From assembly GCA_046726415.1 (NCBI GenBank), contig JBKPAK010000112.1:2334-66333 (forward strand): a DNA stretch of 64,000 nt, in the 5' to 3' direction. Under the pieces are notes generated by a model. The model did not search any database, had not been told where the DNA came from, and worked only from the letters and a program-made list of their open reading frames with translations. Position numbers and translations under genes: made by a program. The DNA is from Candidatus Methylomirabilota bacterium. Its GTDB lineage: Bacteria; Methylomirabilota; Methylomirabilia; Rokubacteriales; CSP1-6. Below, piece after piece: positions 26,422 through 48,699 of this stretch (position 1 is its first letter; every line of letters starts with the position of its first letter).

Positions 26422-27819
<1,398 letters not shown>

Positions 27820-27886: not shown

Positions 27887-28633
27887 ATGAGCGCGCGGAG
27901 CCGGATCGGCGTCATGGGGCCTTCGACCAACACCACCTTCGAGGGTGACTTCCAGCTGGTGGCCCCGCCCGGCGTGACCATCCACGGCCAGCGGCTCTGG
28001 CTCACCAACGACGCGGCCGGCGCCCCGGGAATGGACCGCATGAACGCTGAGGTCGAAGCCGGTGCCCGCTACCTCGCGACGGCCAAGGTAGATGTCGTCG
28101 CCTACGGCTGCACGACCGGCAGCTTCTATCGCGGGCCGGGCTGGGACCGCGACATGATCGATCTGATCCAGCGCGCGGCCGGCGTTCCCGCAGTGGCCAC
28201 CAGCCCCTCGGTGGTAGAAGCGCTGCGCTTCTTCGGCGCGCGGACGATCTCCGTGGCGACGCCCTATCCCGACTGGAACAACCGCCAGCTTCGCGCCTAC
28301 CTCGAGGCGCTCGGCTTCACCGTTCTCAACGTGGAGGGCGAGCCCCGCGCCGCCGCCTCGGGCAATCAGGGCATCAACGATTTCGAACCGGCAGACGTGG
28401 TCAGGTTCGCTCCTCGGGTGTGCCGACCCGAAGCCGACGCGCTTCTCTGCTCCTGCACCGCATGGCGCGCGATGGAGGCGGTGGCCGAGCTGGAGCGGCG
28501 CACCGGTAAGCCCGTGGTGACGTCCAACCAGGCGAGCGTCTGGGCAGCCTACCGCGCGCTGAGGCTCACCGCGAAGATCACGGGCTTCGGCCGGCTCCTG
28601 GAAAGCCTGGCGGGGGCGACCGCGGCGTCCTGA
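27887..28633 (+). CDS. Asp/Glu/hydantoin racemase superfamily protein (HyuE / maleate isomerase / arylmalonate decarboxylase-like)
   Basis: Two-Cys architecture VVAYGCTTGSF (about residue 75) and LLCSCTAWRAM (about residue 190) characteristic of PF01177-type enzymes; sits upstream of LIV-type importer and hydantoinase locus. Confidence 0.7.
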   Translation: MSARSRIGVMGPSTNTTFEGDFQLVAPPGVTIHGQRLWLTNDAAGAPGMDRMNAEVEAGARYLATAKVDVVAYGCTTGSFYRGPGWDRDMIDLIQRAAGVPAVATSPSVVEALRFFGARTISVATPYPDWNNRQLRAYLEALGFTVLNVEGEPRAAASGNQGINDFEPADVVRFAPRVCRPEADALLCSCTAWRAMEAVAELERRTGKPVVTSNQASVWAAYRALRLTAKITGFGRLLESLAGATAAS

Positions 28634-28675
28634 GCGGCGGTCCACCACTGCGAGTCGGCAAGACGGATCACCTGC

Positions 28676-28706
28676 TTGACCGAAGGTGCACGAGGGTCGC
28701 TATAAT
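28676..28706 (+). promoter_or_regulatory. candidate sigma-70 promoter for the LIV-type transporter operon: -35 TTGACC (28676-28681), -10 TATAAT (28701-28706)
   Basis: Perfect TATAAT 45 nt upstream of the SBP ATG; 19-nt spacer is at the long end of the usual range. Confidence 0.3.
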
Positions 28707-28751
28707 GCGCCCCAAAACCCGACCCACCGTGCCAGCAAGGAGGGTGTATCC

Positions 28752-29948
28752 ATGAACCTGTTGCATTTGGCGCTCGCGTCAGTGGTGGCCCTCGCGCTGG
28801 TCGCCGGCCCCGCCGTCACCATGCTCGATGCTCAGAGCAAGGGCACCGTCAAAATCGCCACCCAGAGTCCGCTCAGCGGAGGTCAGGCCGCCCTCGGCGA
28901 GGGCATCAAGCTCGGCGCCCAGCTCGCCATCGACAAGTTCAAAGGCAATCTCGAGAAAGCCGGCTTCAAAGTCGAGCTGGTCCCCTTCGACGATCAGGCC
29001 AAGCCTGACGTCGGGGTGGCCAACGCCAAGAACATCACCGCCGACAAGGACATCCTGACCGTCATCGGCCACCTCAATTCGGGAGTAGCTATCCCGTCGT
29101 CGGAGGTTTACAAGGAAGTCAACCTCGCCATGATCTCGCCGGCCAACACGAATCCGACCGTCACCGACCGCGGCTACCCGAACGTGAACCGGGTGTGTGG
29201 CCGCGATGACGTCCAGGGCGTGGTCGGCTCGGAGTTCGCCAAGACGACGGTGAATGCGAAGAGCGCGTACATTGTCCACGACAAGACCACCTACGGGCAG
29301 GGCGTGGCGGAGTTCTTCAAGACCGACGCCGAAAAGAAGGGCATCAAGGTGCTCGGCTTCGAAGGCACCGAAGAGAAGTCCAACTTCGATCCCATCATCA
29401 CGCCCATCAAAGCCAAGAATCCCGATCTCGTCTACTTCGGTGGCATCTACGATCAGGGCGCCCCTTTCTTCAAGCAGGCCCGAGAGAAGGGCCTGAAGGG
29501 CAAGTTCATGGGGCCGGATGGCATGGACTCCTCTGATCTCACGAAGATCGCCGGCAAGGCGGTGGTCGGCATGTACTACACGTCGGCGGCCGGACCGGCC
29601 TCGGCGCTGCCGAAGGCCAAGCAGTTCGTCGAGGACTTCAAGAAGAAGTTCGGGAAGAACCCTGAGCCATACGCCGCCGAGGCCTACGACGCCACCGCCA
29701 TCGCCCTGAAGGCGGTCGAGATGGCAGCGAAGGGCGGCAAGGCGCCCACCCGTGAAGACGTGTCGACGGCGATCCGCAAGGTGAAATACGACGGGATCAC
29801 CGGCGAGATCGAATTCGACAGCAAAGGCGATCGCAAGAAGGCCCTCTACTTCGTGCTGCAGGTGGTCAACGACAACCCCGAGAAGTGGGGAGACAACAAG
29901 ATCGTCAAGCAGCTGACCATCGCGCCGCCCGCGACGGCGAAGAAGTAG
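28752..29948 (+). CDS. ABC transporter substrate-binding protein, branched-chain amino acid (LivJ/K) family
   Basis: Signal peptide MNLLHLALASVVALALVAGPAVTMLDA; PBP type-I fold motifs; strong SD aaggagggtg 6 nt upstream of ATG 28752 (track ORF start 28686 rejected). Confidence 0.85.
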   Translation: MNLLHLALASVVALALVAGPAVTMLDAQSKGTVKIATQSPLSGGQAALGEGIKLGAQLAIDKFKGNLEKAGFKVELVPFDDQAKPDVGVANAKNITADKDILTVIGHLNSGVAIPSSEVYKEVNLAMISPANTNPTVTDRGYPNVNRVCGRDDVQGVVGSEFAKTTVNAKSAYIVHDKTTYGQGVAEFFKTDAEKKGIKVLGFEGTEEKSNFDPIITPIKAKNPDLVYFGGIYDQGAPFFKQAREKGLKGKFMGPDGMDSSDLTKIAGKAVVGMYYTSAAGPASALPKAKQFVEDFKKKFGKNPEPYAAEAYDATAIALKAVEMAAKGGKAPTREDVSTAIRKVKYDGITGEIEFDSKGDRKKALYFVLQVVNDNPEKWGDNKIVKQLTIAPPATAKK

Positions 29949-30189
29949 GGCCGCGACTCGACGGATTCCGGTGGCGAGGCCGGCGGGCCCCCCTCGGAGG
30001 CCTCAGACGTCCATGAGCATGGGGGGCCCCGACCTGGCCCCTCATCTCCCCCTACGCTCGGAGCGTCACGGCGCGGCCGAGACGCTCCTCGGCACCTCTC
30101 CCATCCTCGGCGCGCCCCGGCGCAGCCGTGACGCTCCTCGAGACCGCCATCGCGTGGGGCGCCCGTTCGCTGGCCGCGGCGCTTAGCCC

Positions 30190-31161
30190 ATGGACATTGG
30201 GCTGCTCGTCGGCGTCTTCCCCCAGGTCCTCCTCGACGGCATCATCCTCGGCTTCATGTACGCTCTCATCGCGCTGGGTTATACGATGGTGTACGGCGTC
30301 CTGGAATTCATCAACTTCGCGCACTCCGAGATCTTCGTGGTGGGGGCTTTCGTGGGCGTGGAGATTCTCCTCGGGATGAAGGGCGCCGGCCTTCTGGAGA
30401 ACGTCCCGTGGCCCTTCCTGCTCTTGCTCATCCTCGTGGCCGGTATGACCGTCAGCGGTCTCCTCGCCGTCACGGTGGAGCGCGTAGCCTACCGTCCCCT
30501 GCGTGCCTCCCCCCGCCTGATCCCCCTCATCTCGGCCATCGGCGTGTCCTTCTTCCTCCAAGACGTCGTGCGCCTCGTCGAGTCCATCTGGCGCAATGCC
30601 TTCAACCTCGTGTACCCGACCATCGATGCTCTCGACGTGCGCTTCGAGCTGACGCCCACCATCGACATCTCGGTGAAGGCGCTCGTGGTCATTGCCGGCG
30701 CCCTGGCGATGCTGTGGGTGCTGCACCTCGTCGTCAATCGCACCAAGATCGGCATGGCCATCCGCGCGGTGGCCGAGGATCAGTCCGCCGCGAGCCTCAT
30801 GGGCATCAACGTCAATCGCATCATCTCGCTCACGTTCCTGATCGGCGGAGCCATGGGCGGTGCGGCTGGGGTGCTCTTCGGCGTGCAGTACGGACTCATC
30901 AATCCCTATACCGGGTTCATTCCCGGACTCAAAGCCTTTACCGCGGCCGTCCTGGGTGGGATCGGGAACATCCCGGGAGCGATGATCGGTGGTCTGGTCC
31001 TCGGGTTACTCGAGGCTTTCGCCGCCTCGTATCTCTCGCTCCTGACTGGCGGCGCCTTCGGCGCGGAATACAAGGATATCTTCGCGTTTTCGATTCTCAT
31101 CCTCATCCTGATTTTCCGCCCCAAGGGCCTGCTCGGCGAAGTCGTTCGGGAGCGGGCATGA
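30190..31161 (+). CDS. livH: ABC transporter permease, LivH family
   Basis: MDIGLLVGVFPQVLLDGIILGFMYALIALGYTMVYGV... typical LivH. Confidence 0.88.
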   Translation: MDIGLLVGVFPQVLLDGIILGFMYALIALGYTMVYGVLEFINFAHSEIFVVGAFVGVEILLGMKGAGLLENVPWPFLLLLILVAGMTVSGLLAVTVERVAYRPLRASPRLIPLISAIGVSFFLQDVVRLVESIWRNAFNLVYPTIDALDVRFELTPTIDISVKALVVIAGALAMLWVLHLVVNRTKIGMAIRAVAEDQSAASLMGINVNRIISLTFLIGGAMGGAAGVLFGVQYGLINPYTGFIPGLKAFTAAVLGGIGNIPGAMIGGLVLGLLEAFAASYLSLLTGGAFGAEYKDIFAFSILILILIFRPKGLLGEVVRERA

Positions 31162-32378
31162 TCCGGTCGGGCCTGGCGGTGGCCGCCCTCGCCATCTCGG
31201 TGGCCGCCGTGGCGATTTTCCCGCGCTCCGTCCTCGCCTTCCTGCTCTTCCAGGGCTCGCTGCTGGGCATCTACCTTGCGCGTATGCCCGGCTGGTTGCG
31301 CGGTGCGTTCTTCGCCGTGGCTCTCCTGGTGATGATGCCGATCATCGGCTCGTACAACGGCTACTACTTGGAGATCGCCACCCAGGTCGGGATCTTCGTG
31401 GCTCTCGCGCTTGGCCTCAACATCGTGGTGGGGCTGGCCGGCCTACTGGACCTCGGCTACGTGGCCTTCTTCGCCGTCGGCGCGTACACGTGGGCGATAT
31501 TCGGCTCGCCGCAGGCCAACCAGATGTTCGGGAGCGGCTTCCCTCTTGCGCCTGGATGGTTCTATGTCTTCCTGGCCTTTGGTCTTCTGACCGCCGCCAC
31601 CTGCGGCATCATCCTCGGCCTGCCGGTGCTGCGCCTGCGCGGCGACTACCTCGCCATCGTCACCCTCGGCTTCGGTGAGGTGATCCGCGTGCTCGCCAAC
31701 AACCTCGACAAGCCCATCAACATCACCAATGGCCCCAAAGGCATCACTCCCATCGTGCGCCCCCCCGCCCCGTTCGGACTCTCCTACGGCGAGTTCTTCT
31801 ACTTCCTCGTGCTGGCCATCGTTGTCGTGGTCATTCTGGTCAACCGCCGGCTCGCCGACTCGCACATCGGCCGGGCCTGGGAGGCCATGCGCGAAGACGA
31901 GCTCGCCGCGCAGGCCATGGGGGTCCCGCTCGTACGGGCCAAGCTCCTGGCGTTCGCCTGCGGGGCGTCGTTCGCCGGGGTGATGGGGGTGGTGTTCGCC
32001 TCGAAGCAGGTCTTCATCAATCCGGAGTCGTTCACCTTCCTGGAGTCCATCGGCGTGCTGGCCATGGTGATCCTCGGGGGTATGGGTTCCATTCCCGGCG
32101 CCGTCCTGGGGGCCACGGTGGTGACCGTCTTGAACCTCCAGGTTCTGAAGGGTTTCTCGCTCTGGCTCAACGAGTTGAAGAATGCCGGAGTCGCCGTCCT
32201 CGGATTCAACCTGGCCGACCTCCCCACTCAGTTCGAGCCGGCCAAGTACGAGCGCATGATCTTCGGCCTCATCCTAGTACTCATGATGATCTTCCGGCCG
32301 CAGGGCATCCTGCCCGCTCAGCGGCGTCAGCGCGAGCTCGCCCGGGGCAGTGCCGCGCCCGACCCTTCCGCGCCGTGA
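31158..32378 (+). CDS. livM: ABC transporter permease, LivM family
   Basis: ATG 31158 overlapping livH stop (ATGA); ...GLLDLGYVAFFAVGAYTWAIF... LivM motifs; track ORF 30408 start rejected. Confidence 0.88.
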   Translation: MIRSGLAVAALAISVAAVAIFPRSVLAFLLFQGSLLGIYLARMPGWLRGAFFAVALLVMMPIIGSYNGYYLEIATQVGIFVALALGLNIVVGLAGLLDLGYVAFFAVGAYTWAIFGSPQANQMFGSGFPLAPGWFYVFLAFGLLTAATCGIILGLPVLRLRGDYLAIVTLGFGEVIRVLANNLDKPINITNGPKGITPIVRPPAPFGLSYGEFFYFLVLAIVVVVILVNRRLADSHIGRAWEAMREDELAAQAMGVPLVRAKLLAFACGASFAGVMGVVFASKQVFINPESFTFLESIGVLAMVILGGMGSIPGAVLGATVVTVLNLQVLKGFSLWLNELKNAGVAVLGFNLADLPTQFEPAKYERMIFGLILVLMMIFRPQGILPAQRRQRELARGSAAPDPSAP

Positions 32379-33211
32379 CGCCGCTGCTCCAGGCGAGCGG
32401 GGTGACCAAACGCTTCGGCGGACTCACCGCCGTCAGCAGCGTGGACTTCGCCCTGGACGGCGGGATCACATCCATCATCGGTCCCAACGGGGCCGGAAAG
32501 ACAACGCTCTTCAACATCTTCACCGGCCTCTACGCGCCCGACGCCGGCGAGGTGCGGTTTCGCGGCGAGATCCTGGCCGGCCGGCGCCCCGACCAGATCA
32601 CCGGGCTCGGCGTGTGCCGGACGTTCCAGAACATCCGCCTCTTCGGCAACATGACGGTGATCGAGAACGTCCTGGTGGGGATGCATGCGCGCATTCGCCT
32701 CGGGCTGTGGGATGTGCTGGTGCGCGGCCCCCGTTTCCGCCGCGCGGAGAGTCAATCGTGGGAGCGAGGCGCGATGCTGCTCGAGCGCGTCGGACTCCGC
32801 GCCCACGCCAACCACGTCGCCCGGAACCTTCCCTACGGCGACCAGCGCCGCCTGGAGATCGCGCGCGCGCTCGCCTCAGAGCCCGCCGTCCTTCTGCTCG
32901 ACGAGCCCACCGCCGGAATGACCCAGAACGAGGCGCGCCGCTTGATGGGTCTGCTCCGAGGCCTGGTCGCCGACCTCGGCCTGGCCATCGTGCTCATCGA
33001 GCACAACATGCGCGTGGTCATGGAGGTCTCCGATCGGGTGACGGTCTTGGACCACGGGGAGAAAATCGCCGAGGGCCGGCCGGGGGAGGTGCGGGCCGAC
33101 ACGCGCGTGATCGAGGCCTACCTGGGGCGCGGCAGCAGTGCGGGTCGGACCACCGAGCGGCCTCGGCTGAGCGTTGACCGGCCGTCGGGAGCAGCCTCTG
33201 CTGAGCGTTGA
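32375..33211 (+). CDS. livG: ABC transporter ATP-binding protein, LivG family (with atypical C-terminal extension)
   Basis: GPNGAGKTTLFN Walker A, LSGGQ-like, Walker B; GTG start overlaps livM stop (GTGA); the last ~25 aa (GSSAGRTTERPRLSVDRPSGAASAER) extend past the usual ...EAYLG end and into livF. Confidence 0.88.
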   Translation: MTPLLQASGVTKRFGGLTAVSSVDFALDGGITSIIGPNGAGKTTLFNIFTGLYAPDAGEVRFRGEILAGRRPDQITGLGVCRTFQNIRLFGNMTVIENVLVGMHARIRLGLWDVLVRGPRFRRAESQSWERGAMLLERVGLRAHANHVARNLPYGDQRRLEIARALASEPAVLLLDEPTAGMTQNEARRLMGLLRGLVADLGLAIVLIEHNMRVVMEVSDRVTVLDHGEKIAEGRPGEVRADTRVIEAYLGRGSSAGRTTERPRLSVDRPSGAASAER

Positions 33212-33212
33212 C
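33161..33212 (+). repeat. 18-bp near-exact direct repeat (cctcNgctgagcgttgac) with 34-bp period at livG/livF junction
   Basis: Copies at 33161-33178 and 33195-33212; copy 1 contains livF TTG start (33174), copy 2 contains livG TGA stop (33209-11), producing a 38-nt gene overlap. Confidence 0.7.
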
Positions 33213-33899
33213 GCCTTGCACGTCTACTACGGGGAAATCCACGCCCTCAAGGGCGTAGCCTTCCGCGTGGAGCGCGGCGAGATCGTGGCCCTGCTCGGCA
33301 ACAATGGCGCCGGCAAAACCACGACGCTCAAGACCGTGTCCGGACTGCTGACCCCGAGGACAGGGGGCGTGGCCCTGGAGGGAGAGCAGCTCACCGGCCG
33401 TCCCCCGCACGAGGTCGTCCTGAAGGGGATCGCTCACGTCCCCGAGGGGCGACGGATTTTCAATCGACTGACCGTGCGCGAGAATCTGCTGATGGGCGCC
33501 TATCGCCGGCGCGACACCGGAATCGCCAGCGATTTCGAACGCGCCCTCGCGCTTTTCCCGCGATTGCGCGAACGGCTTGCCCAGATCGCCGGCACCCTCT
33601 CGGGCGGGGAACAGCAGATGCTGGCCATCGCGCGCGCCCTCATGACGAACCCTCGGCTGCTACTCCTGGACGAGCCGAGCATGGGGCTCGCCCCTGTCCT
33701 CGTGGAACAGATATTCCAGACCATCAGTGACATCAACCGCGAGGGCACGACGATCCTGCTCGTCGAGCAGAACGCCGCCATGGCCCTCGCCCTCGCTCAT
33801 CGGGCGTACGTGCTGGAAACCGGCACCGTCATGCTCTCGGGTCCCGCCAGCGCGCTGGCCCAGAACCCCGAGGTCCGGCGCATCTACCTCGGCGAGTAG
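33174..33899 (+). CDS. livF: ABC transporter ATP-binding protein, LivF family
   Basis: LLSVDALHVYYGEIHALKGVAF..., GNNGAGKTTT Walker A; start (TTG 33174) uncertain, a start near 33199-33205 would better match canonical LivF N-termini. Confidence 0.85.
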   Translation: MTGRREQPLLSVDALHVYYGEIHALKGVAFRVERGEIVALLGNNGAGKTTTLKTVSGLLTPRTGGVALEGEQLTGRPPHEVVLKGIAHVPEGRRIFNRLTVRENLLMGAYRRRDTGIASDFERALALFPRLRERLAQIAGTLSGGEQQMLAIARALMTNPRLLLLDEPSMGLAPVLVEQIFQTISDINREGTTILLVEQNAAMALALAHRAYVLETGTVMLSGPASALAQNPEVRRIYLGE

Positions 33900-33900
33900 C

Positions 33901-34049
33901 CGCAGGACGCAGGGTGAGCCACAGGTCGAGGCGAGCTAGGACGCAGGGCGAGCCGCAGGTCGTCGCAGGGCCGGGGCCCCGCCGTCCGAGGCGAGCTAGG
34001 ACGCAGGGCGAGCCGCAGGTCGTCGCGGGGCTGGGGCCCCGCCGTCCGA
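33901..34049. repeat. 60-bp tandem repeat x ~2.5 (units 33930-33989 and 33990-34049, 2 mismatches; partial copy 33901-33929)
   Basis: Read directly; each unit contains a GGGGCCCC palindrome core; intergenic between livF and maoC (translating it yields the repeated peptide RRARTQGEPQVVAG, so the upstream extension of the MaoC ORF was rejected). Confidence 0.85.
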
Positions 34050-34072
34050 GGAGAGTAGGAAAGGAAGACGGG

Positions 34073-34528
34073 ATGCACATGCCGGGACTGACCTATGAGG
34101 CCCACACCGTCGGAGCGAAGTACCAGACCCACGGCCGGACGGTCTCCGAGACCGACATCGTCACCTTCGTCAATCTCTGCGGCTTCACCGAGCCGCTCTT
34201 CATGGACATGGAGTACCTCGCCCGCGAGTCGATGTTCGCGCGCCGCGCGGCCCCGGGCGCGCTGACCTTCGCGCTCTCCGAGGGGCTGATCATCCAGACC
34301 GGGATCATTCACGGAACCGGCATGGCGTATCTGGGTGGTGAGATGCGAGTGGTGGCGCCCGTGCTGGAGGGAGACACCATCCGCGTCGAGGTCGAGGTCA
34401 CGGCCAAGCGGGAGACGAAAAAGTCCGATCGGGGCATCGTCACCTACACCCACCGAGTGACCAACCAGCGCGGCGAGCTGGTACTCGAGGCCAAGCTCTC
34501 GCGGATGATCAGGCGCGAGAAGGTGTAA
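34073..34528 (+). CDS. MaoC-like (R)-specific enoyl-CoA hydratase / hotdog-fold dehydratase
   Basis: Hotdog-fold MaoC pattern (ETDIVTFVNLCGFTEPLFMD..., RVTNQRGELVLEAK); ATG 34073 preceded by SD aggaaaggaag. Confidence 0.8.
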   Translation: MHMPGLTYEAHTVGAKYQTHGRTVSETDIVTFVNLCGFTEPLFMDMEYLARESMFARRAAPGALTFALSEGLIIQTGIIHGTGMAYLGGEMRVVAPVLEGDTIRVEVEVTAKRETKKSDRGIVTYTHRVTNQRGELVLEAKLSRMIRREKV

Positions 34529-34549
34529 TCCGGCCTGGGTCCAAAGGCG

Positions 34550-35473
34550 TCAGGCCCGCGGATGGAACTGGCGGTACATCTTGTGAATGGTCGCCGAGGG
34601 GAGATATGTGTAGACCTGGGTGGTGCTGATGTCGGCGTGACCCAGCATGGTCTGCACCGCCCGGAGATCGGCGCCGCCTTCGAGCAGGTGGCTTGCGAAG
34701 CAGTGGCGCAGCGTGTGGGGGGAGACGCGTGCGCGGATCCCCGCGGTCCGGGCCGCGCGGCGGACGATCTGCCAAAGGGCCTGCCGGGTGAGCCCCCCAG
34801 CGCGCGGGCTCAGGAAGAGGCGCCCCGGATCGCGGCGTCCACGCAGGAGTCGGGGGCGAATCTCTAGATAGCGGCGAATCCAGAGGAGTGCCTCCTCTCC
34901 CACGGGGACGATGCGCTCTTTCCTGGCCTTGCCCAGGCACTGGACGTAGCCCGCGTTGAGGTTGACGTCGCCCGCGGCCAGGCTCAGGCATTCCGTCGCC
35001 CGCAATCCGCTCGCGTAGAGCAGCTCGAGCAGGGCGCGATCGCGGAGACCGCGCGGCGTGGAGACGTCTGGCGCTTCGACCAGCGCCGCGGTGGCTTGAG
35101 GGGAGAGCGTCTTCGGCAGCGGGCGGGGCAAGCGGGGGCGCTCGATGTGCTCGGTGGGATCCCGGCGGATCTGGCCCTCCTGGCCCAGATGACGGAAGAA
35201 TCCCCGCGCCGCGGCGAGACGGCGGGCCACCGTAGACGGCTTCCTCCCAGCTCGCCGCAGGGCATCCATCCAGTCGATGATGTCTTCGGGTGACGCCGAG
35301 GTGAGCGAGCGCCCCTCGCGGCGCAGACGAGTGGCCAGATCGCACAGATCGCGTCGGTAAGCGGCGACGGTGTTGCGCGAAACACCCTGCTCGGTTTGCA
35401 GGGCGGCGAGGAAGTCGGCGATGGCCGGTTCGCGTGCGACAGCATCCCCCTCCAAAGCGCGCGAACTCGCCAT
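34550..35473 (-). CDS. tyrosine recombinase, XerC/XerD family
   Basis: N-terminal SAM-like domain; C-terminal catalytic ...HTLRHCFASHLLEGGADLRAVQTMLGHADISTTQVYTYL with Arg-His-Arg-Tyr residues. Confidence 0.85.
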   Translation of the reverse strand: MASSRALEGDAVAREPAIADFLAALQTEQGVSRNTVAAYRRDLCDLATRLRREGRSLTSASPEDIIDWMDALRRAGRKPSTVARRLAAARGFFRHLGQEGQIRRDPTEHIERPRLPRPLPKTLSPQATAALVEAPDVSTPRGLRDRALLELLYASGLRATECLSLAAGDVNLNAGYVQCLGKARKERIVPVGEEALLWIRRYLEIRPRLLRGRRDPGRLFLSPRAGGLTRQALWQIVRRAARTAGIRARVSPHTLRHCFASHLLEGGADLRAVQTMLGHADISTTQVYTYLPSATIHKMYRQFHPRA

Positions 35474-35672
35474 GACGCCAGCCTATCAAGGCGACCCGCC
35501 GTCGCTGGCATTTCGAGGGGGCGCTATGGCGCCGCGATGAGCGAAGCCCATCGACGTGATGGGGCCACGCGGACGGCGTTCCTCTCTGGCATTCGCCAGA
35601 AGCGTCGGCCCCCCCGATCCGTTTCGTCGCCTGCGCCGGGTGGGGCGCTTCGGCGATGGTACACTCGTCGGC

Positions 35673-40927: not shown

Positions 40928-42007
40928 ATGAGTGTCGATCCCCGTTCGGCAGTCCCCCACGTCCCCGTCGGCCGTCGGCGCTTTCTCCGCACCACCCTGA
41001 CCGGCGGCGTCGTCCTGGCCGGCCGCGGCCGCGCTGCGTGGGCGCAGCAATCCGGCACCTTGATCGTCACGAGTTACGGCGGGCCATGGGAACAGTTCAT
41101 GCGCAGCGCGATCGTCCCCGCCTTCGAGAAGGAACACCCGGGCCTCAAGATCGAGCTGGCCATCGGCCTCTCCAAGGACTGGATCGCGAAGCTCAAGGCG
41201 GCCGGCAAGCAGAATCCGCCGTACGACATCGTCATCACCAACGAGGTGTGGGCGGCGCCGCTCCGGGCCGACGGCTACTATGCGAAGCTGGTTGGGGTGT
41301 CCAACCTGAAGGACGTCGCGCCGAACCTCCGCATCAAGGACGACACCGGCGTGCTCGCCCTGGTGGGGCCGATCGGCCTCGCCTATCGGACCGACAAGAT
41401 CAAGACGGCACCCAAGGCGTGGAAGGATCTGTGGACGGTACCCGAATACAAAGGCAAGATCGGCATCTACAATATCGTCAACTCCGCTGGGCAAATGTTC
41501 GTCTGCCTTACCTCGAAGATCTGGACGGGCTCCGACAAGGACATCGACACCGGATACAAGAAGATCGCGGAGCTGAAGCCGTTCAAGCAGACCGATTTCT
41601 CGGGCGACATGGAGAAGCTGCTCATCCAGGGTGAGGTGCTGATCGGCATTCTCGACATGCCGGCGGCCATCCGGCTGCAGAAGGCCGGTGCCCCCATCGG
41701 GTGGGTGGGGCCGTCGGACGGCCTCATCATGTTCGAGCAGGATGTGGCGGTCACCGGGGGGTCGAAGAACAAGCCCGCCGCCTTCAGCTACGTCAACTGG
41801 ATGCTGAAGAAGGAGACACAGGAGATGTGGCTGCGCCAGTTCTACTGGCTGCCCGCCAACACCCAGGTGAAGATGCCGGATGATCTCCGTCCGCTCTTTG
41901 GCGCCACCCAGGCCGACATCCCCAAAATTCTCTTGTGGGACTGGCTATGGATCAACGACCAGCGCGCCAAGCTCGTCGACCGCTGGAACCGGGAGATGTC
42001 GAACTAG
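40928..42007 (+). CDS. ABC transporter periplasmic substrate-binding protein, PotD/PotF-like, Tat signal
   Basis: Twin-arginine signal RRRFLRTTLTGGVVLAGRGRAAWA; PBP type-II fold. Confidence 0.85.
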   Translation: MSVDPRSAVPHVPVGRRRFLRTTLTGGVVLAGRGRAAWAQQSGTLIVTSYGGPWEQFMRSAIVPAFEKEHPGLKIELAIGLSKDWIAKLKAAGKQNPPYDIVITNEVWAAPLRADGYYAKLVGVSNLKDVAPNLRIKDDTGVLALVGPIGLAYRTDKIKTAPKAWKDLWTVPEYKGKIGIYNIVNSAGQMFVCLTSKIWTGSDKDIDTGYKKIAELKPFKQTDFSGDMEKLLIQGEVLIGILDMPAAIRLQKAGAPIGWVGPSDGLIMFEQDVAVTGGSKNKPAAFSYVNWMLKKETQEMWLRQFYWLPANTQVKMPDDLRPLFGATQADIPKILLWDWLWINDQRAKLVDRWNREMSN

Positions 42008-42043
42008 TTCGCGAGAGCGCGGAGAGGTCGAGTTCGGCGCCAC

Positions 42044-43123
42044 ATGTCGGTCATCTCGCTGCGGGGGCTGACCAAGCGTTTCGGGAGTGTCGCGGCCGTG
42101 GACGATCTTCACCTCGAGGTCGGCGACGGCGAGTTGATCGCCCTCCTAGGGCCCTCGGGGTGCGGCAAGACCACGACCTTGCGCACCATCGCCGGCTTCG
42201 AGATCCCCGACGCGGGCGAGATCTACTTCGGGGAGCGGCGGGTCACCGACCTCCTACCCGAGCAGCGCAACATCGGGATGGTCTTCCAGAACTACGCGCT
42301 CTTCCCGCACATGACCGTCGAGGACAACGTGGCCTTCGGTCTCCAGATGCGCAAGACGGCCACCCGGGAGACCGGGCAACGGGTGGCCGCCGTGCTGGCC
42401 AAGGTGCAGCTCGCGGGGCTCGAGCGCCGCTATCCACGCCAGCTCTCGGGTGGACAGCAACAGCGAGCCGCCTTGGCCCGGGCGCTCGTCATCGCGCCCG
42501 ATGTCCTTCTGCTGGACGAGCCGCTGGCCAATCTCGACGCGAAGCTTCGGGAGGAGATGCGCTTCTACGTTCGGTCCCTCCAGCAGGAGGTCGGCATCAC
42601 CACGATCTACGTGACCCATGACCAGGCCGAGGCCATGGTGATCGCCGACCGCATCGCAGTCATGTTCGGTGGATACGTCCACCAGCTGGCGCCACCGAGC
42701 GACATCTACAATCGTCCGGCCACCGCGGTGACCGCGGAGTTCATCGGACTCACCAACTTCATCGAAGGGAAGGTCACTGGGGTGGAGGCTGGGTTTCTGG
42801 TGCTGGAAACCTCGATCGGCCCGCTCCGCAGCTCCGGCGAGCTGTCGGATGCCGGGACGCGTTTGATGGCCGTGCGACCGGAGGCGCTGCAGCTCTCCGC
42901 GCATTCGCCCAGCGATGCCGCACTGAACCGGCTGGGCGGCGTGGTGCGTGCGCGAGCCTTCCTTGGCAACCTGATGGACTACCGGGTGGAGGTATCGCCC
43001 GACGTGGTTCTGCGCGTGCAGGGCGATCCCCACGCGCCGTTTGCGGTGGGCGACCGGGTGCACGTGACCTTTGCCCCGGCGGCGGCGTGGTCCGTCCCCG
43101 CGCCGGACGTGCGGTCGCGATGA
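42044..43123 (+). CDS. ABC transporter ATP-binding protein, PotA-like with C-terminal TOBE domain
   Basis: [11 protein letters not shown] Walker A, LSGGQQQR signature, DEPLANLD Walker B. Confidence 0.9.
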
Positions 43124-43995
43124 CCGGGCCGGCGGCCGGGGGGCGCGCGCGCCACACCCCCTGGTGGTTAGTCGTCCCCGCGCTGGCCGTGGTCGTGGTG
43201 TGCTTCGTGCTGCCTTACGCCAATCTCCTGCTCATGAGCTTCTTGGCCCCGGCCCAGGCGCAGCCCTACGATCCGGTGCCGACGCTCGGGAACTACACGG
43301 CCGCCCTGGGCGATGCGTTTCAATGGTGGATCCTCTGGCGGACCCTCAAGCTCGGCTTCCTCACCACCGTCTTCGCGCTGTTGCTCGGCTATCCCCTGGC
43401 CTGGAACCTCGCCCGGGCGAGTGGCCGGGCGAAAGGGATGCTCCTGGCGTTGCTGCTCTCACCCCTGCTGGTGGGCGTGGTCATTCGGAGCTTCGGCTGG
43501 ATGGTGCTGCTGGCCGACAACGGATTGATCAACTCGCTGCTCAGGGCCTCGGGGCTGGCTCCCCACGGCATCGCGCTCATGTACAACGAGTTCGGCGTGC
43601 TCGTCGGCACCGTGCACATCTACCTGCCGTTCATGGTGCTCTCGATCTCGGGCGCCCTGCAGACCATCGCCCCCGACCTCGAGCTGGCCGCGCGCAGCCT
43701 GGGCGCCTCGGCGACCAAGGTGTTCTGGCGCGTGGTGTTCCCGCTGTCGCTGCCCGGGGTGTTCGCCGGCTGCCTGCTCGTCTTCGTGCTCGCGGTCAGC
43801 TCGTACGTGATTCCCGTGCTCCTCGGCGGCTTCAAGGTCATCACCACTCCGCTGCTCGTCGTGCAGACGGCCATCGACGTCAACAACTGGCCGGGGGCCG
43901 CCGCCCAGGCCGTCGTCCTCTTCGCCGCCTCGCTCCTCTGCATCGGCGTCTATGTCAAGCTGATGAGCCGTGCCATGCGCGGGCTGGCCGCATGA
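43120..43995 (+). CDS. ABC transporter permease, PotB-like
   Basis: ATG 43120 overlaps potA-like stop (ATGA); 6 TM, EAA-like loop ELAARSLGAS. Confidence 0.85.
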   Translation: MTGPAAGGRARHTPWWLVVPALAVVVVCFVLPYANLLLMSFLAPAQAQPYDPVPTLGNYTAALGDAFQWWILWRTLKLGFLTTVFALLLGYPLAWNLARASGRAKGMLLALLLSPLLVGVVIRSFGWMVLLADNGLINSLLRASGLAPHGIALMYNEFGVLVGTVHIYLPFMVLSISGALQTIAPDLELAARSLGASATKVFWRVVFPLSLPGVFAGCLLVFVLAVSSYVIPVLLGGFKVITTPLLVVQTAIDVNNWPGAAAQAVVLFAASLLCIGVYVKLMSRAMRGLAA

Positions 43996-44798
43996 GGCGG
44001 AGGGGTCCGGGACGCTATGGGTTCGTGGGCCTCGTGGTGCTGCTCTACGTGTTCCTCCTCGCGCCCATCGCCATCGTCGTTATCGCCAGCCTGAACGCCG
44101 GCCGCTTCCTCGTCTTCCCGCCCGAGGGACTGTCGCTGCAGTGGTACGCGAAGTTCCTGAACAGCGGCCCCTTCGTGCGGTCGTTCCTGTTCAGCGTCCG
44201 TCTGGCCGTCGTCGTCACACTCATCACCACCATCATCGGGACCGCCGCCGCGCTCTACGTGGTTCGCCACGCGCGGGACAGCCAAGGGCTGCGCATGCTG
44301 CTGGTGGCGCCGCTGCAGCTTCCCGGGATCATGACGGCCCTGGCCCTCCTGATCTTCTACTACGGTGTCGGGCTGGGCGGGACGAGCTATCTCGGGCTCC
44401 TGATGGGGCACGTGGTGGTGTGCACGCCATACGTGTTTCTCACCGTATCCGCCGTCCTCTACAACTTCGACCGGTCTCTGGAGGAGGCCGCCCGGAGTCT
44501 CGGGGCCAGCGGCTTCACCACGTTCCGGCGGGTAACCCTGCCTATCATCAAAGGCGGGGTCATCTCGGGCGCTGTGTTCGCCTTCATCACCTCGTTCGAT
44601 CAGTTTCCCATTTCGCTGCTCCTGAGTGGGGTCGGAACCACGACCCTGCCCATCCAGGTCTTCGACTACCTGCGCTTCTCGTTCGATCCGACGGCCGCCG
44701 CGGTGGGCACAGTGAATATCCTCATCACCCTCGCGGTCGTGGTGTTAACGGAGCGACTGGTGGGCCTGGAATCGCTCTACTGGGGAGGACGACAATGA
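43992..44798 (+). CDS. ABC transporter permease, PotC-like
   Basis: ATG 43992 overlaps previous stop (ATGA); EAARSLGASGFTTF EAA loop. Confidence 0.85.
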   Translation: MRRRGPGRYGFVGLVVLLYVFLLAPIAIVVIASLNAGRFLVFPPEGLSLQWYAKFLNSGPFVRSFLFSVRLAVVVTLITTIIGTAAALYVVRHARDSQGLRMLLVAPLQLPGIMTALALLIFYYGVGLGGTSYLGLLMGHVVVCTPYVFLTVSAVLYNFDRSLEEAARSLGASGFTTFRRVTLPIIKGGVISGAVFAFITSFDQFPISLLLSGVGTTTLPIQVFDYLRFSFDPTAAAVGTVNILITLAVVVLTERLVGLESLYWGGRQ

Positions 44799-44817
44799 GC
44801 CACCCGGAGGTCTTCGA

Positions 44818-47800
44818 ATGACTGCTCGCCAGGCCGGGCGATATCGCGTTGGCATCGACATCGGAGGCACCTTCACCGACTTCGTTCTCTTCGACGAGGA
44901 GCGCGGCCGGCTCACCATCCACAAGTGCCTCACCACCCCCAAGGATCCGGCGGCCGGCGCGCTGGAGGGGCTCGAGGAACTCCTGCGGGCCGCCGCCCTG
45001 CGGTTCGACGACATCGGCCACCTGGTCCACGGCACCACCCTCGTCACGAATGCCATCATCGAGCGGAGCGGGGCTCCGATGGGACTCCTCACCACCCGGG
45101 GCTTCCGGGATACCCTGGAGATGGGCGTCGAGCAGCGCTACGACATCTACGACCTCTTCCTGCGCTTCCCCGAGCCGCTGGCCCCGCGTCAGTGGCGGCG
45201 CGAGATCGACGAGCGCATCAGCCGTGATGGCGACGTCATCGTGCCTCTCGATGTCGGGCAGGTCTTCCACGAGGTCGCCGACCTCGTGGCCCAGGGCGTG
45301 GAAGCCATCGCCGTCTGCTTCCTGCATTCGTACAAGAATCCAGTGCACGAGCGCGCGACACGCGAGGCGATCCGGCGCGACTTCCCGGCCCTCGCCGTGT
45401 CGCTGTCCTCGGAGGTGGTGCCCGAGTTGCGCGAGTACGAGCGCGGGACTACAGCCACGGCCAATGCGTACGTGCAGCCCCTTATGGACCGCTACGTGGC
45501 GCGCCTGGAGGAAGCTCTGGCCGAACGCGGCTTCCGCGGGCGCTTCCACCTGATGCAGTCCTCCGGCGGCATGGCGTCACCGGCCACGGCGCGCGCCTTT
45601 CCCATCCGCCTGCTCGAATCGGGCCCGGCCGGGGGCGGCTTGGCCACCGCATTTTTCGGGCGGCTGGCCGGCTACGCGGATGTCATCTCTTTCGACATGG
45701 GGGGCACCACGGCCAAGGCGTGCCTCATCCAGCAGGGGCGGCCCGACATCGCGCCCATGATGGAGGCGGCACGGGTGCACCGGTTCAAGCGGGGCAGCGG
45801 CCTGCCCATCAAGGCGCCGGTCATCGACATGATCGAGATCGGGGCGGGCGGTGGCAGCACCGCGCGCGTCGATCCGCTGGGGCTGCTGAAGGTCGGACCT
45901 CACAGCGCGGGAGCCGATCCGGGACCCGCCTGCTACGGGCTCGGTGGCAAGGCGCCGACGGTCACCGATGCCAATCTGATGCTCGGGTACCTGGACGCCG
46001 ACTTCTTCTTGGGCGGGCGCATGCGGCTCGACACAAGGGCGGCCGAGGCAGCCATGGCCACGGTGGCGGAACCACTCAACTTGAGCCCGCTCGAGGCCGC
46101 GTGGGGCGTCTACACCATCGTCTGCGAGAATATGGCCGCGGCGGCGCGCGTGCACATCGTGGAGAAGGGACGGGACCCGCGGCGCTACGCCATGGTGGGC
46201 TTCGGCGGGGCTGGCCCGGCCCACGCGGCGCGGGTGGCGCGCATCCTGGGGGTGCGGGAGGTCATCGTTCCGCCGGCCTCGGGCGCCGCCTCCGCGCTGG
46301 GCTTCCTCGTGGCGCCCATCGCCTTCGAGCTGGTGAGGTCGCTGCCCGGGGTCCTCGAGGAGCTGGACCTCGACGCCGCCAATAGTCTTCTGGACGACCT
46401 CGAGGCCCGTGGACGGGCGCTGCTCCGCGAGGCCGGTGTGGCGGCGGAGGACGTGACGGTCACCCGGCGGGCCGAAATGCGGCTGCTCGGGCAGGTGCAC
46501 GACATCACCGTCGCGTTGCCGGCCGAGCCGCTCTCCCCCTCGACGCTCGACGAGGTGAAGGCCGCCTTCGAGGACGAGTATCAGCGTCTCTACACACACG
46601 TCTACACGGGCACCGTCATCCAGGCCATCAGCTGGCGAGTGCGGTGCGCGGGACCAGCCCCGTCGATCAGCGTCGAAGACCGGGGAGCGACAGTGGCGGG
46701 GCGCCCCGCTCTCAAGGGACACCGGCGGGCCTACTTCGGCGATGCTGGTGGCTGGGCCGACACACCGATCTACGACCGCTACGCGCTCTCACCCGGGCAG
46801 GCTCTCGCCGGCCCGGCGATCGTGGAAGAGCGGGAGTCGACCACCCTGGTGCCACCGGGCGATCGCCTGGAGGTCGACGCTCGGGGGAACCTCCGCATCC
46901 ACGTCAGCCAGGACAGTTCGCTCGAGCCCTTGGTCCCTCGCGGCCTGCCACTGGCCGAGGCGGTGGTGCGCCTCACGGCCGATCCCATCGGCCTGGAGAT
47001 CATGTGGAGCCGGCTCATCAACCTCGTGGAAGAATGCTGGCTCACCGTATGGCGAACGGCGTTCTCGCTGATCATCGGGGAGGCCCAGGATTTTGCGTGC
47101 GAGATCCTGGACGCGTCTGGCAACTCGCTGGCCCACTCGCCGCGCGCCATGCCCGTCTTCAATCTCACGCTGCCCCGCGCGGTGCGCGCGATGCTCGAGA
47201 GGTTCCCGGTGGAAACCCTGCGGCCCGGCGACATCCTCACCACCAACGATCCGTGGATGTGCGCGGGGCATCTGTTCGACATCGCCATCGTGACCCCGGT
47301 GTTCCGCGAGGGGCGCGTGGTGGCCCTGATCGGGACTATCGGCCATGTGGCCGACATCGGGGGAACCCGGGACAGCCTGAACGCACGGGAGATCTACGAG
47401 GAAGGCTTCCAGATCCCGCCCATGAAGCTGTTCCGGGCCGGGGTGCCCAACGAGGATCTGATGGCGCTCCTGGCCGAGAACGTCCGCAAAAGCGAGCAGG
47501 TGCTGGGCGACATCCACGCCATGATCTCCGCCAACGCCTCCGGGGCCCAGCGCCTCCTCGACTTCATGGAGGAGTACGGGCTGCACGATCTCGAAGCGCT
47601 CGCCACCGTCATCCAGGACCGGTCAGAGGCTGCCATGCGGGAGGCCATCCGCCGGCTGCCCGACGGCGCCTACGAAAGTGAGATCTGGAACGATGGCATG
47701 GGAACGCCCGAGCGGTATCGCGTGAGGGTCGTCGTGCGCGGCGACGAGATCGACGTCGACTTCCCCGAGGCGCCGCCGCAGACCGCGCGCGGTGGCTCGA

Positions 47801-48699
47801 ACTGCACGTTCGGCTACGCCGCGGCGCACACCGTGTACCCGCTGAAGTGCATGCTGTCGCCGGCCGTGCCCAGCAACGCCGGCTCGTATCGCCCGCTTCG
47901 GGTGAGTGCCCCCGAGGGCAGCATCCTCAACTGCACCAAGCCGGCCGCCGTCAACACGCGCGTCCGCACCGGCTGGTACATCGCGCCGAATCTGTTCCGG
48001 GCCCTCAGCCCGGCCGCCCCCGAGGCAGTACAGGCGTTCACTGGCCTGCCGGCGTCGGTCACGTTCTACGGAGTGGGGCCTGACGGGCGATTCTTCAACG
48101 ACCATCTCTTCCAAGGTGGAGGGCAGGGTGCGTCTGCACAGGGTGACGGGAAGTCCGGGCTGCTCTGGCCGACCAGTGCCGGGAACACCTCGATCGAGTT
48201 GTTCGAGACGCGAACTCCGGTCCTCGTGCTCGAGAAGAACTTTTTGATCGATAGCGGCGGACCGGGTCGTCACCGCGGGGGGCTCGGCCAGGTGGTCCGA
48301 GTGCGCAAGCTCCTCGACGATGGCCGCCCCGTGCTAGCCGGCCTTCATCCCGACGGTGTCCTCACTCGCACCGGGGGGCTGTTCGGCGGCCAGGCGGGAG
48401 GTCCGGTGCGCGGCGTCACCCGCCACGCCGCAGGGGACGTCGAGGATCACGGCATCGGCGGGCTCCTGAGCCTGGCCGGCCGCGACGAGATCCTCGAGGT
48501 GCAACTCGGGGGCGGGGCGGGCTACGGCAATCCGTTCGAACGGCCCCTCGACGTGGTGCAGCGGGACCTGGACGGCGGCTATATCAGCCGGGCCGGCGCC
48601 GAGCGCGACTACGGCTGCCTCGTCGATGCGCACGGACGTATCGACAGGGAAGCGACGGCAGCCCCGCGCACCAGGAAGGCGCTCGGCACCCGCGACTGA
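44818..48699 (+). CDS. second fused hydantoinase/oxoprolinase HyuA-HyuB paralog (1293 aa)
   Basis: MTARQAGRYRVGIDIGGTFTDFVLFDE... HyuA; HyuB half from DPIGLEIMWSRLINLVEE...; 20 nt downstream of the Pot-like permease, same strand. Confidence 0.9.
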   Translation: MTARQAGRYRVGIDIGGTFTDFVLFDEERGRLTIHKCLTTPKDPAAGALEGLEELLRAAALRFDDIGHLVHGTTLVTNAIIERSGAPMGLLTTRGFRDTLEMGVEQRYDIYDLFLRFPEPLAPRQWRREIDERISRDGDVIVPLDVGQVFHEVADLVAQGVEAIAVCFLHSYKNPVHERATREAIRRDFPALAVSLSSEVVPELREYERGTTATANAYVQPLMDRYVARLEEALAERGFRGRFHLMQSSGGMASPATARAFPIRLLESGPAGGGLATAFFGRLAGYADVISFDMGGTTAKACLIQQGRPDIAPMMEAARVHRFKRGSGLPIKAPVIDMIEIGAGGGSTARVDPLGLLKVGPHSAGADPGPACYGLGGKAPTVTDANLMLGYLDADFFLGGRMRLDTRAAEAAMATVAEPLNLSPLEAAWGVYTIVCENMAAAARVHIVEKGRDPRRYAMVGFGGAGPAHAARVARILGVREVIVPPASGAASALGFLVAPIAFELVRSLPGVLEELDLDAANSLLDDLEARGRALLREAGVAAEDVTVTRRAEMRLLGQVHDITVALPAEPLSPSTLDEVKAAFEDEYQRLYTHVYTGTVIQAISWRVRCAGPAPSISVEDRGATVAGRPALKGHRRAYFGDAGGWADTPIYDRYALSPGQALAGPAIVEERESTTLVPPGDRLEVDARGNLRIHVSQDSSLEPLVPRGLPLAEAVVRLTADPIGLEIMWSRLINLVEECWLTVWRTAFSLIIGEAQDFACEILDASGNSLAHSPRAMPVFNLTLPRAVRAMLERFPVETLRPGDILTTNDPWMCAGHLFDIAIVTPVFREGRVVALIGTIGHVADIGGTRDSLNAREIYEEGFQIPPMKLFRAGVPNEDLMALLAENVRKSEQVLGDIHAMISANASGAQRLLDFMEEYGLHDLEALATVIQDRSEAAMREAIRRLPDGAYESEIWNDGMGTPERYRVRVVVRGDEIDVDFPEAPPQTARGGSNCTFGYAAAHTVYPLKCMLSPAVPSNAGSYRPLRVSAPEGSILNCTKPAAVNTRVRTGWYIAPNLFRALSPAAPEAVQAFTGLPASVTFYGVGPDGRFFNDHLFQGGGQGASAQGDGKSGLLWPTSAGNTSIELFETRTPVLVLEKNFLIDSGGPGRHRGGLGQVVRVRKLLDDGRPVLAGLHPDGVLTRTGGLFGGQAGGPVRGVTRHAAGDVEDHGIGGLLSLAGRDEILEVQLGGGAGYGNPFERPLDVVQRDLDGGYISRAGAERDYGCLVDAHGRIDREATAAPRTRKALGTRD

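Follow-up and report, generated by a model that had tools for sequence, protein, structure and literature searches.

Two single-chain HyuA-HyuB proteins of apparently independent fusion origin in a Rokubacterial chromosomal region with adjoining importer genes

The window analysed here, a stretch of 64,000 nucleotides with a guanine plus cytosine (G+C) content of about 67% from a soil bacterium of the Candidatus Methylomirabilota, Rokubacteriales (assembly GCA_046726415.1, contig JBKPAK010000112.1, positions 2,334 to 66,333), contains two genes, hyuAB1 (35673–39482, plus strand) and hyuAB2 (44818–48699, plus strand), each encoding a HyuA part and a HyuB part in one polypeptide chain. The region around them is read here, with a probability of about 0.62, as three separable units rather than two complete pathways, the two large proteins being uptake-coupled hydrolases of cyclic amides that would depend on adenosine triphosphate (ATP). 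The most notable result concerns HyuAB1, which appears to be the product of a recent, lineage-specific re-fusion of two separate genes, with the intermediates of the junction still alive in relatives. The gene order was derived from a listing of open reading frames (ORFs) and from Pfam and NCBIfam scans of the window; homologous loci or contigs retrieved from relatives are labelled with L-numbers (L001, L086, L095 and so on). All genes named in a preliminary description of this DNA were recovered by these scans at the positions given there, the permease PotC being real but encoded in another frame.

Domain composition and catalytic residues

Both proteins contain the Pfam domains Hydant_A_N, Hydantoinase_A, Hydant_A_C and Hydantoinase_B in this order (E-values 1e-20 to 1e-151), which bears out the HyuA-then-HyuB arrangement described before. 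The four domains scored 190/290/75/505 bits in HyuAB1 and 186/294/73/450 bits in HyuAB2, all above the gathering scores. HyuAB1 comprises 1269 residues when read from the ATG at 35673, or 1308 residues from the first GTG, and is 47% identical over 1281 residues to HyuAB2 (1293 residues). The ATP motifs DVGGTFTD or DIGGTFTD and SFDMGGTT, which correspond to D11 and D295 of the caprolactamase subunit CapA, are kept in both proteins. Furthermore, the segments AGDLS, GHLND and CHTADIGG of HyuAB1 align with the Zn-site residues of CapB, listed in PMC8453981 as D41, H99, D101 and H124 (the second aspartate is D102 by alignment count), and D, H, D and H occupy the equivalent positions of HyuAB2. In CapA and CapB the ATP- and Zn-site residues are essential, and mutation of the CapB aspartates and histidines abolishes caprolactamase activity (PMC8453981). 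Ratios of non-synonymous to synonymous substitution (dN/dS) lie at 0.08–0.14 for both halves of HyuAB1 (0.08–0.13), HyuAB2, the M20D amidohydrolase and PotD, so that both halves of HyuAB1 are under purifying selection.

As judged from these features, both proteins can be assigned to the family of ATP-dependent hydantoinases and oxoprolinases, which also covers lactamases and carboxylases. The best match of both in the PDB was the single-chain N-methylhydantoinase 7hk5/9h03 (613 and 626 bits), to which the likeness is only moderate, the B half being about one third identical by rough count; CapA plus CapB scored 394+170 and 413+207 bits for the two proteins. The caprolactamase equivalog models NF050156/NF050157 were missed (577 and 550 bits with the CapA model, 202 and 206 bits with the CapB model, cutoff 1000 each), as were the acetophenone carboxylase models NF042975, NF042960 and NF042976 (82–337 bits against cutoffs of 1250–1500). 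No carbamoylsarcosine-amidase-like gene was found among the annotated neighbours of the hyu genes in the window.

Single-chain HyuA-HyuB proteins in bacteria

According to PMC11033972, the bacterial homologues are encoded by two genes and the eukaryotic ones are single chains, and the preliminary description likewise gave hyuA and hyuB as separate genes in most bacteria. This is a widely held view, but the fused architecture does not set the window proteins apart. A pattern scan over GTDB, with each species represented by a single genome, yielded at least 598 matching stretches and 570 confirmed relatives, and in all 80 loci that were retrieved HyuAB2 aligned contiguously (approximately residues 1–1290), i.e. 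all of them are full-length fused genes. These loci come from Methylomirabilota, many Alphaproteobacteria, Burkholderiales, other Gammaproteobacteria and Actinomycetota. The best genome matches of HyuAB2 are metagenome-assembled genomes of Candidatus Rokuibacteriota / Methylomirabilota (76–80% identity), the fused orthologues across phyla being 61–85% identical. In the protein database, well over 100 distinct fused clusters of 1180–1410 residues were found with each of the two proteins as query, and among 939 matching plasmid records the top ones carry single genes annotated as "hydantoinase B/oxoprolinase family protein" with 56–63% identity. It is clear that single-chain HyuA-HyuB proteins are common in bacteria, which corrects the two-gene assumption of PMC11033972, and HyuAB2 is best placed, from its alignments, in an old and widespread fused family. 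Homologues of the eukaryote-type 5-oxoprolinase are given for 115 of 984 prokaryotic genomes (~12%) in PMC13274462, which cites Niehaus 2017.

Evolutionary origin of HyuAB1

The nearest relatives of HyuAB1 are separate HyuA proteins of 720–795 residues with 74–80% identity, fused proteins reaching just 45–51%. Within hyuAB1 the HyuA part extends over approximately 35673–37742, a linker of about 45 codons over 37743–37871 and the HyuB part over 37872–39482, all on the plus strand. Among the split pairs of relatives, the A and B halves are 83% and 87% identical to those of HyuAB1 in L088, where the two genes meet in a TGATG stop/start overlap, and 86% and 90% identical in L086, with an ATGA overlap. 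In L084, the closest relative (90% and 91%), hyuA ends in a stop codon that is followed by a spacer of 62 nucleotides. The pairs of L002 and L003 (80% and 84%) share a GTGA overlap and a HyuB with a basic N-terminal extension of 40 residues, and in L001 (78% and 78%) an insert of about 740 nucleotides separates hyuA from hyuB. In the window, the frame runs on past "…LALIV" for about 45 codons, an open stretch of 135 nucleotides encoding KPSAVGEATGRHRVTRRAAARTGALRGEPSPSMRWPRRPSRTGD, into MMDPVTLEV, the normal start of HyuB. The spacer of L084 can be aligned with part of the linker, which lacks the codon-position G+C pattern of coding sequence, its G+C content at second codon positions being 0.81 against 0.49 in the flanking coding sequence.

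The same linker is present in seven full-length ORFs of 1269–1307 residues and in one copy truncated by the end of its contig, all from one species. Their sources are several JGI samples and a single NCBI assembly; overall they are 99–100% identical, with occasional substitutions elsewhere. The fusion might in principle be an artefact of assembly or sequencing, or belong to a dying gene, with hyuA and hyuB still being two genes, and this would fit the run of five G residues at the junction (GTGGGGG, 37763–37767), which is of a type prone to insertion and deletion errors, the ATG-ATG retained internally at the HyuB start and the split state of L084. Such an explanation is nevertheless very improbable, since the identical linker recurs on at least seven contigs from separate samples, in proteins that differ elsewhere by point substitutions. 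In addition, its frame stays open for 45 codons, selection acts on both halves, and there is no clear ribosome-binding site ahead of the internal ATG.

A neighbour-joining tree of the concatenated A and B halves, calculated with fast Kimura distances and 300 bootstrap replicates, was rooted on a single, distant outgroup, namely the split pair of a Ketogulonicigenium plasmid. HyuAB1 grouped with the split clade, and more closely with L086 and L088, in 100% of the replicates each, and the split clade was sister to all fused lineages in none of the 300. The two fusions would consequently be of independent origin, that of HyuAB2 belonging to the old fused family and that of HyuAB1 lying inside the split clade; the preliminary description of two paralogous fused genes was thus right about both being fused and, on this tree, wrong if it implied a common fusion event. 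HyuAB1 appears to have become one ORF only in this species and very recently, by read-through of the former spacer. The simplest reading of the tree, which relies on one outgroup and a distance method, is that a fused ancestor underwent fission in Rokubacteria and that re-fusion followed in this species. The series of junctions, from overlap through a spacer with a stop codon to an open linker, illustrates how a two-subunit enzyme may become a single chain, and might be of use in designing fused lactamases for the biocatalysis of nylon monomers.

Two further observations were made on the split pairs. The HyuB of L086 (2122–4485, 787 residues) carries a C-terminal Uma2 domain (PF05685, putatively restriction-endonuclease-like), another fusion at this place. 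The insert of L001 (12226–12969) contains an ORF resembling class-I glutamine amidotransferases with a TGA exactly at the position of the nucleophilic cysteine (VGT*GGFQH); the ORF may be a pseudogene, or the TGA is conceivably read as a selenocysteine codon.

The potDABC-hyuAB2 unit and its importer

Directly upstream of hyuAB2, and all on the plus strand, lie potD (40928–42007), potA (42044–43123), potB (43120–43995) and potC (43992–44798). Together they supply all parts of a PotABCD-type ATP-binding cassette (ABC) importer in one cluster, namely a binding protein, an ATPase with a TOBE_2 domain and two BPD_transp_1 permeases. The binding protein carries the twin-arginine motif VGRRRFLRT, in agreement with its earlier description as a Tat-exported protein encoded with PotABC ahead of this locus. 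The distances between potD, potA, potB, potC and hyuAB2 are 36, −4, −4 and 19 nucleotides, and a GGAGG ribosome-binding site precedes hyuAB2, whose start codon is 19 nucleotides past the potC stop. From this packing, the five genes are predicted to form an operon-like unit and are probably co-transcribed. One weak promoter-like site in the spacer between the M20D gene and potD was not used as evidence. The ORF originally listed for potC (43970–44821, plus strand) is off-frame and rich in arginine, an artefact that stems from the high G+C content, with the true gene in another frame; the artefact frame still gave 46–51% "identity" by tblastn in relatives, which calls for caution with ORF-based gene calls in this genome.

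The binding protein scored 55 bits with the PotD equivalog model, far below its cutoff of 582, so that a polyamine ligand is not implied. A PDB search with this protein for clues to the ligand returned as best matches structural-genomics entries without a ligand in their names, followed at low scores by PotD/PotF and the mannopine-binding protein 5l9s. The order potDABC-hyuAB2 is repeated in the Rokubacterial loci L005–L008 and L086–L089, the pot orthologues of L086 and L088 being 79–91% identical to those of the window and annotated BPD_transp_1. In the alphaproteobacterial loci L022, L025, L026, L047 and L067, a PotD-type system with 40–56% identity stands beside the orthologue in other orientations.

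When the neighbouring ORFs of the 80 HyuAB2 loci were clustered, the recurrent ones were an IclR regulator (33 loci), an OPT transporter (28), a Dpp/Opp-type binding protein with permeases (26) and AroM (15–16), a racemase-superfamily protein. An uptake gene of OPT, Dpp or PotD type was found within 6 kilobases (kb) in 62 of the 80 loci, from several phyla, and many loci without one are on truncated contigs. HyuAB2 is thus consistently coupled to import, with the class of importer being interchangeable, and this recurrent pairing marks a widespread putative function in the scavenging of nitrogen or carbon by soil bacteria, uncultured Rokubacteria included. A literature search for clusters of IclR, AroM or OPT with hyuAB gave nothing specific. 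In L001 and L095 the genes from M20D to hyuAB2 are absent and hyuB is followed by an ntrC-like gene and/or thioredoxin and AIRS genes; M20D-potDABC-hyuAB2 therefore behaves as an insertion/deletion block.

The M20D amidohydrolase and the genes upstream of hyuAB1

The gene between the two hyu loci (39455–40798, minus strand) encodes a protein of 447 residues that scored 191 bits with TIGR01891 (cutoff 153.75), which substantiates the convergent M20D amidohydrolase previously placed after hyuAB1. It overlaps the 3′ end of hyuAB1 by 28 nucleotides, is divergent from potD, and keeps its position in L085, L086, L088 and L089. Its nearest PDB entries are HmrA, an Xaa-Arg dipeptidase, an ILR1-like hydrolase and an N-acyl-glutamine aminoacylase. 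In a search of the NCBIfam carbamoylase models (E ≤ 1e-5) the sole match was ErtE, with 29 bits against a cutoff of 520. The protein is accordingly predicted to be of the M20D aminoacylase/dipeptidase type and not of the HyuC/AmaB carbamoylase type. An M20 gene had also been considered as the defining conserved partner of these enzymes, and was dropped for its rarity and the low identity of the proteins (figures below).

Upstream of hyuAB1, a gene of the Amdase/Asp_Glu_race superfamily (27887–28633, 248 residues, Pfam) is followed on the same plus strand by livK (28752–29948, Peripla_BP_6), livH (30190–31161) and livM (31158–32378), both BPD_transp_2, livG (32375–33211) and livF (33174–33899), both ABC_tran, and maoC (34073–34528, MaoC_dehydratas). 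Between maoC and hyuAB1, on the minus strand, lies xerD (34550–35473), which scored 335.3 bits with TIGR02225 (cutoff 329.6) and is predicted to encode a housekeeping tyrosine recombinase, divergent from hyuAB1. It abuts hyuAB1 in the window, likewise hyuA in L095, and nearly so in L088. In L095, the only other long contig reaching there, LIV genes and MaoC were not detected in the 6.6 kb past xerD; in L002, three PMT_2 genes as well as MOSC, DAO and TAXI genes lie between them and hyuA. Because of the intervening xerD and the layouts of L095 and L002, the Amdase-like gene, LivKHMGF and MaoC are treated as an independent unit that is merely nearby. Relatives instead carry, immediately upstream of the split hyuA, NMT1_3 (a TAXI-TRAP binding protein encoded divergently) and/or DUF1850 (L001–L003, L088), with genes for a fused DctM permease, DAO and MOSC also near (L001–L003, L088); TAXI-TRAP is the ancestral neighbour of the split hyuA/hyuB pair, and this set is gone in the window. 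The claim that each hyu gene has its own ABC importer hence stands for the packed and conserved locus 2 and fails for locus 1, where the racemase-family gene and the LIV importer do precede hyuAB1, the linkage having been proposed with xerD overlooked.

The supposed racemase matched the Pfam family Amdase (PF17645) with 120 bits and Asp_Glu_race with 33 bits, did not reach the cutoffs of the equivalog models for EutA and arylmalonate decarboxylase, and had arylmalonate decarboxylase (AMDase) and maleate isomerase as its best PDB matches. It has cysteine at both catalytic positions (AYGCTTGSF and LLCSCTAW), as do maleate isomerase and two-base racemases, whereas arylmalonate decarboxylase has glycine at the first of them. 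The two cysteines make isomerase or racemase chemistry plausible for this protein, which would be Amdase/maleate-isomerase/EutA-like and not a hydantoin racemase of the HyuE type. MaoC has 151 residues when read from the ATG at 34073, which is preceded by a ribosome-binding site, or 204 residues from the GTG at 33914; its orthologue in L002 has 151 residues and is 80% identical, and the fold is (R)-hydratase-like.

Proposed function and alternative explanations

In the arrangement proposed here, the Tat-exported PotD-family protein and the ABC permease of the first unit (40928–48699) would import a small nitrogen-containing cyclic amide, whose ring HyuAB2 would then open at the cost of ATP. 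By analogy with caprolactamase and 5-oxoprolinase (PMC8453981, PMC11033972), the N-terminal HyuA part, with its ASKHA fold, would spend ATP on converting the lactam into a phosphorylated lactim, either directly or with carboxyphosphate as intermediate, and hydrolysis of this activated form would fall to the C-terminal HyuB part, which holds the Zn site. M20D may cleave an acyl or dipeptide bond, either ahead of ring opening or following it. The second unit, hyuAB1 alone (35673–39482), would provide another enzyme of the same mechanistic class, derived from the split pair and having lost its TAXI-TRAP partner, and the third (27887–34528), composed of the isomerase-like gene, LivKHMGF and MaoC, would function independently across xerD.

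For HyuAB2, the leading though tentative guess at a substrate is 5-oxoproline or a related γ-lactam. It draws on three observations: in many orthologous loci the enzyme has no recurrent neighbours other than a regulator and a transporter, so that its product would have to feed straight into central metabolism; "5-oxoprolinase (ATP-hydrolysing)" is the name given in the source annotation; and 5-oxoproline-binding TRAP receptors are encoded near a eukaryote-type 5-oxoprolinase gene in Bordetella pertussis (PMC13274462). The fused HyuAB2 family, with an uptake system nearly always encoded beside it and M20 or M24 peptidase-like hydrolases or AroM now and then, might also supply the missing ATP-dependent ring-opening step for an abundant, unassigned class of environmental cyclic amides (such as diketopiperazines or pyroglutamyl compounds) and not be a 5-oxoprolinase; this wider proposal is considered unlikely. 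As a separate matter, the Rokubacterial lineage would document a full cycle of one enzyme from fused to split to re-fused genes.

Several observations weigh against the proposed units and substrate. Neither clade has a characterised member, which leaves the substrate to be assigned by context only, and both proteins are about equally distant from every solved member of the family, so that their architecture does not predict the substrate. The importers linked to HyuAB2 (polyamine/opine-like PotD, Dpp and OPT) are not of the classes known for 5-oxoproline, and AroM-like neighbours (15 of 80 loci) together with M20/M24 hydrolases hint at other or more complex substrates. M20 genes accompany few HyuAB2 orthologues, namely those of 2 of the 80 genome loci, of the Rokubacterial group and of one plasmid each of Aminobacter and Ketogulonicigenium, and outside the Rokubacterial group their products are just 26% identical to the M20D of the window. 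The arrangement of hyuAB1, M20D and potDABC-hyuAB2 is conserved among close relatives (83–91% identity) and may reflect no more than shared ancestry. Finally, scans for sigma-70 promoters and terminators gave counts at chance level and are uninformative on co-transcription.

The region was originally interpreted as two hydantoin-utilisation-like pathways, each consisting of a racemase, an ATP-dependent hydantoinase and an amidohydrolase with an ABC importer of its own. Every type of part is indeed present, the two catalytic cysteines of the Amdase-like protein are those of racemases and isomerases, the M20 gene directly adjoins both hyu genes in a position kept in close relatives, AroM stands beside 15 of the 80 HyuAB2 orthologues, and plasmid 2 of Ketogulonicigenium vulgare repeats a split hyuAB, M20, a fused hyuAB and an ABC importer. 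The interpretation is nonetheless improbable, as the racemase-like gene is best assigned to Amdase/maleate isomerase and lies 7 kb from hyuAB1 with xerD on the opposite strand in between, the M20 protein is of the aminoacylase/dipeptidase type with its low ErtE score, and the split pair had TAXI-TRAP and not LIV as its ancestral neighbour, LIV being undetected by hyuA in L095 and set apart in L002. The analogy with racemase, HyuA/B and amidohydrolase is therefore abandoned along with the importer of locus 1, the Amdase-like and M20D proteins differing from HyuE and HyuC in subfamily, and what survives of the two ring-opening pathways with dedicated uptake is the enzyme class and the coupling at locus 2.

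Housekeeping 5-oxoprolinases that repair endogenous 5-oxoproline, with ordinary importers adjacent by chance, would account for the source annotations, which name both proteins 5-oxoprolinase, for their eukaryote-type single-chain architecture, shared with homologues in about 12% of prokaryotic genomes (PMC13274462), and for the core-chromosome setting. Two copies that are just 47% identical are, however, unexpected for a single role, and chance adjacency is at odds with the 19-nucleotide gap between potC and hyuAB2 and with importers of three unrelated classes at 62 of 80 loci. Moreover, the M20D-potDABC-hyuAB2 block is patchy (absent from L001 and L095), unlike a core repair gene, and the family includes N-methylhydantoinase, caprolactamase/valerolactamase and putative opine lactamases (PMC8453981, PMC11033972, PMC6733357); the housekeeping role is therefore judged unlikely. 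An ATP-dependent carboxylase function of both proteins, like that of acetone or acetophenone carboxylase, is scarcely credible, even though these enzymes belong to the same superfamily and their subunits are returned by PDB and NCBIfam searches. The B halves scored 82–94 bits with ApcD and 41–47 bits with the acetone carboxylase alpha model against 202–206 bits with CapB, no gene for a small extra subunit (acetone carboxylase gamma, Apc epsilon) is evident beside either locus, and an importer of polar solutes is easier to reconcile with a lactam or amino-acid-like substrate than with a ketone. Uptake-coupled, ATP-dependent hydrolysis of cyclic amides within three separable units thus remains the preferred reading.

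Genomic context

Ahead of the Amdase-like gene the window contains, over 21593–27819, a secretin gene (PilQ/GspD-like) followed by aroB (23481–24575), a TPR protein gene (24457–25254), efp (25261–25827), accB (25824–26309) and accC (26422–27819), these five on the plus strand. Downstream of hyuAB2, an NtrC-type ORF (48731–49243, minus strand) precedes genes for thioredoxin (trx, 49363–49692), an AIRS-family protein (49809–50876) and CNNM/CorC (51985–53385), the latter three again on the plus strand, and in L086 and L088 the locus is followed downstream by ribosomal-protein operons. With aroB, efp, accBC, xerD and trx around it and the ribosomal-protein operons in relatives, the hyu region is embedded in the core chromosome, with no obvious mobile element.

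The NtrC-type ORF encodes 170 residues in which residues 1–54 of a receiver domain run on in frame into an AAA+ lid and a Fis-type helix-turn-helix. A full-length sigma-54 activator of 452–495 residues occupies the same place in L001 and L086, and the gene is absent in L088. The ORF thus looks like a remnant of an NtrC-type activator left by internal deletion, and may once have regulated the region before it decayed. The NtrC-type gene beside the locus in relatives prompted a scan for sigma-54 promoters (TGGCAC-N5-TTGCW), which gave 12 matches against 20 expected by chance, none of them upstream of potD or hyuAB1.

Comparison with known systems

The enzymes of the window belong to a known kind of system and do not represent a new one. 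The hydantoin-utilisation cluster of Pseudomonas sp. NS671, reportedly described by Watabe et al. in 1992 (a study cited in PMC8453981), has the order hyuA-hyuB-hyuC-hyuE. Like that cluster, the window combines, within a single region, an ATP-dependent HyuA/HyuB enzyme, an amidohydrolase of the M20 clan and a member of the racemase superfamily; it differs in that its racemase-like protein is Amdase/maleate-isomerase-like and lies in a separate transcription unit across xerD, and that its hydrolase is of the M20D and not of the carbamoylase type.

Caprolactamase CapAB of Pseudomonas jessenii and OplAB of Pseudomonas putida KT2440 share with the window proteins the Pfam domains, the ATP-motif aspartates and the Asp/His residues of the Zn site, and CapAB and the valerolactamase OplAB catalyse the ATP-driven opening of lactam rings in catabolism (PMC8453981, PMC11033972). 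CapAB differs in being an (αβ)2 assembly of two polypeptides with the gene order B-A, compared with a single chain in the order A-B, and no dedicated ABC importer is described for it (PMC8453981, PMC11033972), whereas locus 2 has one. The N-methylhydantoinase 7hk5/9h03 (1288 residues) is a single A-B chain of similar length and yet no closer than CapA and CapB combined; a literature search found no paper describing the PDB entry 9h03. The eukaryote-type 5-oxoprolinases (OPLAH/OXP1) and their bacterial homologues are single A-B chains like the window enzymes, the likeness being one of architecture. The 5-oxoprolinase gene of B. pertussis is near the TRAP receptors DctP6 and DctP7 (PMC13274462), in place of which the window has a PotD-type ABC importer and M20D.

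On Ti plasmids, genes of the HyuA/HyuB family have been proposed to open lactam opines, and an ABC transporter closest to putrescine systems is encoded nearby (PMC6733357). The weak match of the window's binding protein to the mannopine-binding protein 5l9s recalls this setting, but the Ti-plasmid hyu genes are split, plasmid-borne in Agrobacterium and of inferred function only, and there is no evidence of opines in the habitat of the window organism. The set of parts seen in the window also recurs in the distant Alphaproteobacteria, on plasmid 2 of K. vulgare (L152, NC_017385.1, 29705–49481), which carries a split hyuA-hyuB pair, an M20 aminoacylase gene, an IclR regulator, a fused hyuAB, a Dpp-type importer and a further hyuA. 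Its fused hyuAB product is 57% identical to HyuAB2, and its split pair and M20 protein are just 26–37% identical to their counterparts in the window.

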